Below, in pieces: positions 33,001 through 36,000 of a stretch of DNA of 64,000 bases (the first letter of the stretch is position 1; each line of letters begins with the position of its first letter). Where the stretch lies: the NCBI GenBank assembly GCA_043827025.1, contig JBDRPL010000011.1, forward strand, positions 1 through 64,000, written 5' to 3'. The position numbers are program-made. Source of the DNA: Candidatus Micrarchaeota archaeon. Lineage in GTDB: Archaea; Micrarchaeota; Micrarchaeia; Anstonellales; Bilamarchaeaceae.

Positions 33001-36000
33001 AAAAGGAATAGTTTTGATCCCCTTATTGCAAATTCTATGTCTACTGGTGATGAATTGAAATGCCTTTCCAATATTAATGATAAGGTATATAGTGGATTGG
33101 TGAATCTTTTCAGAAATGTTTCAACTGCATGATTTAGGCTCGGGAATCCAAGCAGTTCTGCCAGTCTTTTGATTCCAATCCTTTCCTTATCCATTGTCTC
33201 AGTGCTTAGTACTTCACCGAACTCCTGCTGTATTTTTATGGCTGGCATATCTTTTCTTGCAAGATGGCCTTTTTGCACTACTATTATATTAGGGCTGCAC
33301 TTTTCAACAGCAACTGTGCCAAGGCCAAGAACCATTGACATTGTAAATGTGTTGTCTCCGTTTACTGAGGATGTATCTACCACTCCGCTGAATACTGGTC
33401 CGACATAGCCCCCTTCAATCTTGTTTCCAATTACTGATTGAAGCATAACTGCCATTCCACCTTCCAGACCATTGCTAGCCAGGTATGTTGTGGCATGTAG
33501 GCTATTACCGCTTCTTGCAACTCTTTGAATTGCAGATGCCAATGCATGTATATCTCCGTTATTTCTTATAAATAGCGTATCAAATACTCCTGCGCAACTG
33601 TGCGCGCCATCTTCAGAAAAACCTGATGACCTGACTGCAATAAAATCTCCGTCCAATTTTACGTGCTTTACTACCTGGGAAAGTTCATAAATATCCGGAG
33701 CCATGTCTCTGATGACGTCACTGGCAAGAATGGTTGTCTTAGGTATCTTTGCAATATCTACGCCTTGAAGCGTATGTGCAACTCCCCAAGTATGGCTTCC
33801 TTTTCCACCTAATTCCCCTTTGCCGATGGTAATCACTGAGCCTACTTGGGCCTTTCGATATCTTAAGGATTTCATCATTAATCGTTATGCCTGACCCTAT
33901 TTATAAATATTCTCTTTTTTCCATATTTAACAACTAACAACATTCTTTTATTCCTGTTTCTGTATATCTCTTAGTTGCTTTGCAGTTAATCCTCCGACCT
34001 TTGGAATTAGCATTTTAATCAGTGATGTCGGAATGAATCCTCCGTTTTCTGAGACTATCACCTGCAGTTCCATGTCTTTTTCCAATACTGCCAGGGCTCC
34101 CAAATCCACCTCATTTTTCACATCTCTTACGTCTTTTACTTTTTCAACCATGTTCAGTTCAATGCCCATGTCCACGAGTGCATCCACTAACAATCTATTT
34201 TGAGGCACTGTGTGTAAGGCTGTTTTTTGTTGCTCTCCAATTCTTATGCGGATCTTCAACTGTGCCAATTCCCTGACAGTTACTTTTCCGGGTCTTGTTT
34301 TGGTCATCATAGAAACTAATGACCTATATGTTTCTGCAAACCGTCTTGTTAGCTCTCCAGCTCCTTTGTAAATAGCATGGGCTGCACCTCCTCTTTCAGA
34401 AAATTCATGCATCGGGCGTGATCTAATTATCCATTCGAATGGGGCGAATAAAGTTGGATCATATGCTCTTGTGTCTATATGTAGTGATCTGTACTCATTT
34501 GCCTTTGGTCCCTTTCTTCGGACTACGTCATGCAATGATTTCTTCCCCGCCTTTTTTGAGTTTTCAATTGGTGGATTAATATAATCAGTTACTTCAGTAC
34601 GATATTCTCTCCTGTGTATCCCTCTTTTTGCAAGTGCTCTTTCTATGCATTTCGGCAATATCTGATTGTTTATTTTGTTTGCAGCTCTGACCAAGGATTC
34701 TTTTGTAGTGCTTCCATTGAAGCTATCTATGATGATTCTGCCTGCCGCAAAATCGCTTCCGTTTTGTTGGTCTTTGTTGTATTCGTCGATATTTCCGAAT
34801 AAATACCTACAGTGTTTGTTGTCTATCATTACGCTTGTTGTTTTTCCTTGCTGGTCAATCACACTCAAAACGAGTATAGTTCCTTCCACCTTTATGGATG
34901 TAGTGTGTCCATCAACTGAAAATTCAATACCTTCACAAGCATTTTCCTTCACGTCCCTTATGAATGGATTTTTTACATTAAGTGATATCATTTCTTTTGG
35001 GATGCCTGCTAATTCTAGCATCTTCAAACATCTTTCCTCGTACCTTTTCTTTATCTTTACGCCCAGGCTTCCGAATCCCTTGCCTTCCTCTCGCGGTTCC
35101 ACCTCTGCGGCTATCCCGTGTTTCCTGAGTTCGAGTTTCAATTCTGCACTCATTTCTCTAATGATTGCATTGCTTGCCTCCACTTCGCGGGATATCCTTC
35201 CCATTTCTCCCTCTACATAATTCCATATGTCCGGAAAGCAGTGAAGCATTGCAAAGTTTTTCATCCCCTTCACAAGAGATGGAAATCCAAGCAAGTCCCC
35301 TAGGTTGGCGTAAAGTCCCATCACTGATTCCGCAGTGTTTCTTTCCATATTTATCCATTCTATTATTTCAGGCACCTGGATTTCTGAAGATTCTGATGTG
35401 GTTACTGATGCAGGCAGATTATGCTCCCATAGTCTTGAGACGAAAGCAAGCCTTGCAAGCAATGCAACAGGAGGCCTATCTCCGTTTTGGGGTGTAAGCA
35501 CTTGTGCATAACTCTCGGCATCATACCCCTCCTGACAGTCAAGCGTCCTTAGTGTATCGTATGCGCCAAGTTCTCTTGCGAAACTGCTAAGGTATTCTGG
35601 GTCATATCCATTTCCATCGTTTAACGGATTTCCAAGCAGAGTCCATGGCACTAATCCTGGTTCTTTGCACATGCTCCAGCTGAGAATGTCAAGAAGAAGA
35701 AGGTTTCCTCTGTCTCCTTTTCTGTTTGCTTCTTCAATTATTGCTTCTGGGGTTATGAGATTTGATCTAATTCCTTCTTCAAGACAGTCTCTGCAATACT
35801 GTAAGTGTCCTTTTGCAAAAGTAGCTACCGCTCCGTCGCTATAGTGGCTAAGGATGTAGTTATAGGCCCTTTGGAATCTGTCTTCTATTATTCGCATTCC
35901 TCTGGCCCGATTTTTGCCATTGTCAGTAGTATAAATTCCCACGTTATTAACTTGTTAGAAATACTATTTAAATGTGTGTCTCATTGGACGTATCAGTCGT

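Follow-up and report, generated by a model that had tools for sequence, protein, structure and literature searches.

Can archaea of the phylum Micrarchaeota make alarmones, and if so with what kind of enzyme? The question is raised by g610, a gene in the 64,000-nt window analysed here (contig JBDRPL010000011.1, assembly GCA_043827025.1), which comes from a Micrarchaeota archaeon of the family Bilamarchaeaceae. The initial annotation described its product as a hidden, hydrolase-dead RelA-type synthetase of the RelA/SpoT homologue (RSH) superfamily, serving either stringent control or a host-directed role. (p)ppGpp was undetected in H. volcanii and S. acidocaldarius, both of which lack RSH genes. 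In other DPANN phyla, a text passage of PMC8407392 puts the share with RelA/SpoT at 69% in Diapherotrites, 42% in Woesearchaeota, 21% in Pacearchaeota and 19% in Nanoarchaeota, and that passage does not list Micrarchaeota. Our literature searches found no paper on the g610-type lineage, although subscription papers and unseen supplements may differ; the main-text parts available of PMC12892359 and PMC8561730, and one supplement file of the former, make no mention of RelA, SpoT or ppGpp.

Fold, domain order and active-site residues of g610

The open reading frame proposed for g610 is real (Table 1), and its GC content is 0.42 against 0.41 for the genome. Since a TATA-box-like octamer is centred 26 nt before the GTG, by a consensus and spacing that we assume to apply, the gene probably has its own promoter, and the position of the octamer suggests a leaderless mRNA. 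The protein is divergent, not hidden as had been claimed: Pfam RelA_SpoT (PF04607) matches residues 454-528 with 30.7 bits against a cut-off of 27, while TIGR00691 matches weakly, far under its cut-off. RelA_SpoT also exceeds its cut-off in 35 of 41 scanned homologues (three of the 35 being canonical Rel), and family member P0025 already carries an automatic NCBI name as a bifunctional RSH; homologue P0006, 41% identical to g610, is named "hypothetical protein [Candidatus Bilamarchaeaceae archaeon]". The genome holds exactly one RelA_SpoT match and one HD_4 match.

Table 1. Features of the window discussed in the text
Feature	Position	Strand	Description and basis
g610	33948..35942	minus	664 aa, GTG start; long-RSH-derived: pseudo-HD, core, SYNTH, TGS and first helical-domain helices
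Pseudo-HD and core helices	35193..35927	minus	~aa 6-250; VIA-align and alignment columns
Synthetase domain	34353..35192	minus	~aa 251-530; Pfam and alignment columns
Beta-rich insertion between K296 and D397	34764..35045	minus	~aa 300-393; model and alignments
TGS, and two helices equivalent to those that open the Rel helical domain	33951..34271	minus	TGS a beta-grasp, ~aa 558-633; VIA-align, profiles
TATA-box-like octamer	35965..35972	minus	5' of g610; from sequence
FMN-dependent enzyme	36282..37307	minus	Pfam FMN_dh; presumably a type-2 IPP isomerase (IDI-2), a label kept from the initial annotation; conserved upstream neighbour
Lrp/AsnC regulator	31986..32459	plus	Conserved downstream neighbour
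Glutamine synthetase (presumed)	30528..31874	minus	Named from sequence; conserved downstream neighbour
g616	39233..40390	plus	385 aa; RSH-type HD hydrolase motifs and a conserved alpha/beta C-terminal domain

The fold and domain order of g610 are those of a long RSH. In agreement with what had been reported, the predicted model has a pLDDT of 89.6 and a pTM of 0.80 (previously pLDDT 87), full-length SpoT, Rel and RelA fill Foldseek ranks 1-7 (E 9e-10 to 1e-7), and the ESM Atlas gives a feature score of 0.96 to an archaeal RelA_SpoT cluster. With VIA-align, the first of 48,161 chains is B. subtilis Rel 8acu (Z 18.1, rmsd 4.1, 307 aligned). A profile of 80 aligned g610 homologues, with a mean column identity of 16%, aligns with B. 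subtilis Rel 6yxa (E 1.6e-29) over a single span running from the core helices to TGS inclusive. An hhalign comparison of the g610 family with an alignment of nine canonical Rel proteins has a probability of 99.9; its 440 columns are colinear, starting in the HD domain and reaching the last helix of g610. The PF04607 domain with D397, E503 and Y484 places g610 among the synthetase-bearing RSHs; by hhalign and VIA-align it joins an HD-like domain and SYNTH in one chain, which is how a passage of PMC3153485 defines long RSHs (HD or pseudo-HD plus SYNTH, with C-terminal domains optional). Descent from a bacterial long Rel is clear.

For the residue comparison, Rel numbering follows RelSeq. Rel D264 and H420 were taken from passages of PMC7797070, the equivalent FaRel2 residues from passages of PMC11782079 and the HDxxED motif from passages of PMC8012599. 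Residues 10-242 of g610 superpose on small alarmone hydrolases with Z 8.5-9.6 (7p1y: Z 9.6, rmsd 4.1, 166 aligned), and the pseudo-HD on Mesh1 5vxa with Z 8.8 (rmsd 4.4, 160 aligned). As had been noted, g610 carries no hydrolase motif: HDxxED is absent in both the hhalign comparison with canonical Rel and the 80-row alignment, the four HD metal-ligand positions of Rel are occupied by Y49, S90, M91 and F167, and g610 thus falls outside bifunctional Rel[HS], which is recognised by HDxxED and the Mn ligands. Across the 80 rows there is no conservation of the Asp of HD, which lies outside the six commonest residues of its column, or of the ED pair or the Asn; in 65 rows His, His and Asp are retained in the remaining three metal-ligand columns, onto which canonical Rel also maps. 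These retained ligands, together with the lost Asp, point to a loss of HD activity independent of that in RelA. The idea that the His-His-Asp remnant is kept where a hydrolase is absent was rejected: it occurs in 16 of 22 family genomes with no hydrolase match and in 8 of 23 with a g616-type gene, with no genus pattern and with a weak alignment of genera g3 and g5.

The synthetase residues of g610 are R284, K288, S292, K296, D397, R402, K480, N482, Y484, S486, H488, E503, R507, E516 and H522. K288, D397, E503 and H522 are invariant in all 80 homologues, and Y484 (79/80) and H488 (77/80) are near-invariant, as the initial annotation stated; K296 is present in 79/80, and R284, which it also called invariant, in 74/80 of this wider alignment. 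The spacer between K296 and D397 spans 100 aa in g610 and 85-103 aa in 12 of the 80 rows, against a median of 25 and 12 in canonical Rel. Three ATP-site contacts that are unchanged in 46/46 canonical Rel are often replaced in the family (Ser S247 26/84, Arg R269 31/84, Gln Q325 31/84); g610 retains the Ser and the Arg and has I505 in place of the Gln of the ExQxRT motif. Where RSH genes form tandem pairs, the upstream paralogue has Lys, Gly and Thr at three ATP-site positions. The acceptor motif of g610 is of the housekeeping type (K480-x-N482-x-Y484-x-S486-x-H488, plus E516). According to parts of bioRxiv 10.1101/2021.04.30.441581, (pp)pApp synthetases have strongly different acceptor motifs and tRNA-modifying RSH toxins no clear sequence signature, so the sequence does not decide against a tRNA acceptor.

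The C-terminal beta domain reported earlier exists and can now be identified as a TGS domain by profile, hhalign and VIA-align: residues 559-664 align with Rel 6htq_x 391-484 (Z 8.3, rmsd 3.1, 92 aligned), and TGS 2eki matches g610 with Z 7.1. The chain stops ~30 aa past TGS, and ZFD and RRM/ACT are absent. Among the 80 aligned sequences, 45 keep TGS and the first helices of the helical domain, and 35 are missing the C-terminal part. The TGS His that senses tRNA-CCA is present in 45/46 canonical Rel proteins, in 0/41 family members with the column, g610 having Gly there, and in 2/30 other divergent proteins. Passages of PMC7797070 and PMC8012599 assign TGS H420, ZFD and RRM roles in tRNA and ribosome sensing; in the former, ZFD and RRM are both required for activation by tRNA, and their loss lowers synthesis by B. 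subtilis Rel.

Among known enzymes, bifunctional Rel (B. subtilis 6yxa, 8acu and 6htq; RelSeq 1vj7) is the best profile and structural match of g610, sharing its HD-core-SYNTH-TGS-helical start order and its catalytic SYNTH residues. Unlike it, g610 has no HDxxED, TGS His, ZFD or RRM, carries insertions of ~90 and ~20 aa in SYNTH and a Gln-to-Ile change in ExQxRT, and is 17% identical. With RelA[hS] of Beta- and Gammaproteobacteria (5iqr, 5kpv), which a passage of PMC9974481 describes as synthetase-only, g610 shares the pseudo-HD and, at the sequence level, an active-type SYNTH; a separate hydrolase partner is likewise plausible. RelA[hS], however, is ribosome-activated and keeps the TGS His, ZFD and RRM that g610 lacks. 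In mechanism g610 is therefore not of RelA type, the decay of HD being different as well. Short bacterial HD-SYNTH-TGS clusters of the ESM Atlas (466-498 aa, candidate division WWE3 included) have the same truncated order (feature score 0.91; structure rows 3, 5 and 8), but 98-100% of their members carry the Pfam HD_4 that g610 lacks. Canonical RelA/SpoT of Ca. Micrarchaeia (family f20) are long RSHs of the same phylum; they differ in being full length, with ZFD, ACT, an intact SYNTH and the TGS His, and in occupying a separate tree branch (union p-AU 0.097). Toxic small synthetases (FaRel2 and CapRel acting on tRNA; Tas1 and FaRel making (pp)pApp) resemble g610 in catalytic core, G-loop Tyr and one-way action. 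They are, however, small proteins of toxin-antitoxin or secretion loci, whereas g610 has 664 aa, three domains, a housekeeping site and no antitoxin neighbour, and its model matches CapRel and Tas1 with Z 8.4 each, against 18.1 for Rel.

Gene neighbourhood, distribution and origin

Neighbourhoods were compared between the window and 40 loci picked from single-sequence matches (n=41). A recurring block reads glmS-rpl11-reductase-membrane protein-IDI-2-RSH-Lrp-glnA, in which glmS, glnA, rpl11 and IDI-2 are in part presumptive names. An IDI-2-like gene is found no more than 1.5 kb from the RSH gene at 33/41 loci, which extends the adjacency first seen in three of four; the glnA cluster is present in 28/41, and one or the other is nearby in 38/41. 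Tandem RSH pairs, which had been described as frequent, occur at 10/41 loci, all in genus g2, and the genome of g610 has a single copy. In genera g3, g5, g9 and g14 the RSH copy occupies a different conserved site, and families f17, f19/f21 (beside PEP synthase) and f15 (beside AlaRS) have sites of their own. From these conserved sites, inheritance within lineages is vertical. No conserved small or antitoxin-type neighbour of the RSH gene was found in the 41 loci. The g610 protein evolves fast, with a median identity to homologues of 27%, compared with 59% for IDI-2, 48% for Lrp, 43% for glnA and 32% for glmS.

We reproduced the earlier single-sequence count for g610 (47/98 family genomes); word-indexed searches for homologues had little sensitivity (3 and 2 matches). 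A profile search reaches 81/98 family genomes and 19/23 genera, a few of the matches being fragments or weak, and 105/401 sampled genomes of the phylum; nearly all of the strong matches have an open frame of 430-680 aa. It also finds 10/77 other genomes of the order, where none had been counted: 8/19 in f6, and 2/42 in f2 that are short and SAS-like. Of 42 matches in the phylum outside the family, 40 loci were examined. Divergent proteins of 408-678 aa without HDxxED account for 29 of them, in families f6, f15, f16, f17, f19, f21 and f22, so the lineage is not restricted to Bilamarchaeaceae; the others are six full-length Rel (f20), four SAS-like proteins and one locus without an ORF hit. The two largest other families are nearly empty (f12 1/94, f13 3/83). 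Nor are Micrarchaeota RSHs as such new to databases, since near relatives of the f20 Rel already carry the NCBI name "RelA/SpoT family protein" in Ca. Micrarchaeia/Micrarchaeota. The core of the initial proposal, a native, syntenic, hydrolase-dead lineage of synthetase type, is supported.

Trees were built on 211 columns of the core and synthetase; of 187 rows, 184 were kept, 155 after removal of near-duplicates, and 61 entered the careful tree. There, the 36 divergent rows form a group with P0032 and P0047, both of them Rel proteins without a name (100/98), apart from the f20 Rel, in a tree with long branches, an unsettled bootstrap and no characterised RelA, and with P0032 and P0047 chosen by their score to g610. 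A union of the divergent rows with the f20 Rel is not rejected by the AU test (p-AU 0.097). For the divergent lineage, too, a bacterial long-Rel ancestor is clear.

The HD protein g616

In the genome, g616 alone was found to carry HD_4 (52.4 bits). Its motif residues R80, H89, H113-D114, E117, D195 and N199 are invariant in 26/26 aligned sequences, and its closest structural matches are long RSHs, in their HD and core regions (SpoT 7qpr: Z 21.5, rmsd 2.6, 190 aligned). A split Rel with its ACT domain on g616 was considered but not established: Atlas structure rows for the C-terminal domain, ACT included, have TM 0.39-0.47, all below the bar, and no profile match to the Rel C-terminus was found. 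No Ppx/GppA match was found in the genome, which is 92% complete.

The reported count of g616 matches (42/98 family genomes) was reproduced, but it includes short SAH-like hits, and the 42 lie largely in other genera. The proximity of the two genes is incidental: a g616-type gene lies in the RSH block at 1/41 loci, other members adjoin other genes, and an operon or fixed pair with g610 is rejected on this ground. The phylum sample contains 63 RSH-positive family genomes: 26 carry a g616-type gene, 7 a shorter HD match only and 30 no hydrolase-profile match. In this genome g616 is a plausible functional, not fixed, partner of g610.

Proposed function and its alternatives

Judged from its residues and architecture, g610 would be a cytoplasmic, one-way, ribosome-independent (p)ppGpp synthetase, a reading to which we give slightly better than an even chance. 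Fold, order of domains, conserved residues, synteny and distribution are observations; catalysis, product, regulation, targets and the g616 partnership we infer as follows. ATP and Mg2+ would be bound through K288, K296, D397 and E503, a guanine nucleotide would stack on the G-loop Tyr Y484, and pyrophosphate would be transferred to its 3'-OH to give (p)ppGpp or pGpp, which g610 would be unable to hydrolyse. Because ZFD, RRM and the TGS His are missing, it would not be activated, as RelA is, by uncharged tRNA on stalled ribosomes; the dead HD, the TGS and the lineage-specific insertions more likely tune its activity to a different input. The targets of the product would lie within the archaeon itself, among GTP-using enzymes and translation GTPases, and where present the separate g616-type HD protein would remove the product.

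This reading appears the most likely because the catalytic and guanine-type motifs are kept, the sensing parts are lost, no hydrophobic segment was found (top 19-residue hydropathy 1.22, no signal segment) and the site is a housekeeping one. We also count in its favour the single RelA_SpoT and single HD_4 of the genome, the g616-type gene in 26 of the 63 RSH-positive family genomes, the colinearity with canonical Rel and best structural match to Rel 8acu, and the retention, at so low a mean identity, of the G-loop Tyr, both Lys and the catalytic Asp and Glu. Against it stand the replaced ATP-site contacts, the undetected (p)ppGpp of the RSH-less H. volcanii and S. acidocaldarius, the fast divergence relative to IDI-2 and, by analogy, the drop in synthesis that B. 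subtilis Rel may lead one to expect when ZFD and RRM are gone; the 30 of 63 genomes with no hydrolase match are awkward for a regulated alarmone. Given the ATP-site changes, the product may be another one, with (p)ppGpp the likeliest.

The replaced ATP-adenine contacts, whose FaRel2 equivalents are R95, Q147 and S70 (roles from a passage of PMC11782079), could also mark an active pyrophosphokinase with another substrate, one that caps tRNA at its 3'-CCA terminus (a reversible translation shutdown with a g616-type HD eraser), produces (pp)pApp or mixed alarmones, or takes a changed donor. Fast divergence and large insertions beside the active site would fit, and RSH toxins are known to switch substrate with no signature (bioRxiv 10.1101/2021.04.30.441581, in part). 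Yet the characterised switched enzymes are small synthetases and g610 has a long-RSH build, CapRel and Tas1 match it far less well than Rel, its guanine-type motifs are retained, the lost TGS His leaves no TGS-based grip on CCA, and no antitoxin neighbour is fixed; we consider a changed substrate unlikely, though the strongest of the rivals. That g610 is a weak or inactive nucleotide-binding scaffold or sensor, or a decaying relic, is decidedly improbable: long branches, the C-terminal losses, the absence of all HD ligands in g610 and the altered upstream paralogues of tandem pairs would suit decay, but catalytic residues are invariant in 80/80, frames of 430-680 aa stay open and the gene is kept in 19/23 genera.

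Stringent control in the ribosome-sensing sense, in which archaeal ribosomes carrying uncharged tRNA would activate g610, would accord with the TGS and first helices kept in 45/80, with rpl11 in the same conserved block and with a dead HD like that of RelA. The TGS His, almost universal in canonical Rel, is nevertheless missing from the family and nearly so from other divergent proteins, and the ZFD and RRM that PMC7797070, in the part cited above, requires for tRNA activation are gone, which makes such a factor very unlikely. Least probable of all is a host-directed effector whose alarmones poison or reprogram a host cell. A DPANN lifestyle, fast evolution and duplication, and the many genomes without a hydrolase might suggest one, and exported alarmone synthetases exist in bacteria (a passage of PMC12691689); against this, g610 has no signal or membrane segment, a fixed housekeeping site, no fixed antitoxin and no PADLOC match, and the biosynthetic capacity of Anstonellales is broad according to part of PMC12892359. 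One f17 homologue has a PADLOC match to PDC-S33 across its synthetase part. In viral contigs, two single-protein queries, which reach close relatives only, found no relative.

RelA/SpoT in other DPANN phyla and canonical RelA/SpoT in Ca. Micrarchaeia were already known; new here is a divergent RSH lineage that is hydrolase-dead and lacks the ribosome-sensing parts. Tentatively, and with less than an even chance, we propose that Micrarchaeota possess a native, old split-Rel alarmone system, in which a ribosome-independent pseudo-HD-SYNTH-TGS synthetase, its ATP site remodelled and most members keeping a remnant metal site of three ligands, works with a stand-alone hydrolase of long-RSH type (g616 type) bearing its own sensor domain; its product may be new, or it may place a reversible mark on tRNA. 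If true, this would be the first archaeal (p)ppGpp-type signalling. The g610-type enzymes also provide a second, independent case of a Rel turned synthetase-only with ribosome sensing removed. They lend themselves to assays in vitro or in E. coli with no need to culture the organism, and g610, from a tiny groundwater archaeon, offers a concrete enzyme with which to ask whether archaea make alarm nucleotides. With the synthetase kept vertically in 81/98 family genomes and found in seven further families, production of a pyrophosphorylated nucleotide is probable for an entire archaeal group.

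Genes around the RelA-like protein

The conserved C-terminal domain of the family of g616, the RSH-type HD hydrolase encoded near g610, has four invariant residues (Y290, P304, S334 and E344) and a weak likeness to ferredoxin and ACT domains. Genes of the g616 type are also present in genomes of family f18 that give no synthetase match to the g610-type profile. Directly downstream of g610, the long-RSH-derived RelA-like gene, lies a gene for a protein whose only Pfam domain is the PPDK_N ATP-grasp domain. Its C-terminal part has no Pfam match, and the protein has neither a paralogue in the same genome nor a close homologue in the other RSH loci compared. 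Elsewhere in the window, the ORFs at 24772-27323 encode what we take, from their sequences, to be a ferredoxin-like protein, a maturation-protease-like protein and large and small subunits resembling those of NiFe hydrogenases; this group is syntenic in L031, L033 and L034.

Features in the window and at RSH loci of other Micrarchaeota genomes
Feature	Location	Strand	Details
Conserved C-terminal domain, g616 family	window 39980-40360	+	g616 aa 250-375
PPDK_N-only ATP-grasp protein	window 32463-33878	-	471 aa; Pfam PPDK_N, 88.9 bits
Tandem RSH pairs, genus g2	L040:6871-9873, L048, L052, L053, L057, L059, L063, L066, L044, L039
Full-length Rel, family f20	L134, L137-L140, L143
SAS-like RelA_SpoT proteins, families f13, f29, f22	L167-L170		352-385 aa

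Other RSH sites and forms in the phylum

In families f19, f21 and f16, the divergent RSH genes (L141, L142, L145, L146, L148, L149, L165) adjoin a PEP synthase gene, a site that these families have in common. No conserved neighbourhood was found for the SAS-like genes at their four loci, and these genes are probably mobile. In all six full-length Rel proteins of f20, Arg or Lys replaces the Glu of HDxxED; these proteins may be weakened hydrolases.

Possible remnant metal site and tandem copies

At the alignment columns matching g610 residues 49, 90 and 167, His-His-Asp is kept at three of the four HD metal-ligand positions in 65 of 80 g610 homologues, with the HD Asp lost; the same pattern occurs in 17 of 49 more distant proteins. 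It may be a leftover metal site that serves in structure or sensing. The upstream copy in nine of the ten g2 tandem pairs belongs to one distinct TGS-less clade (444-496 aa), which carries Gly, and often also Lys, at ATP-site positions. This copy could be a regulator or an enzyme making a second product.
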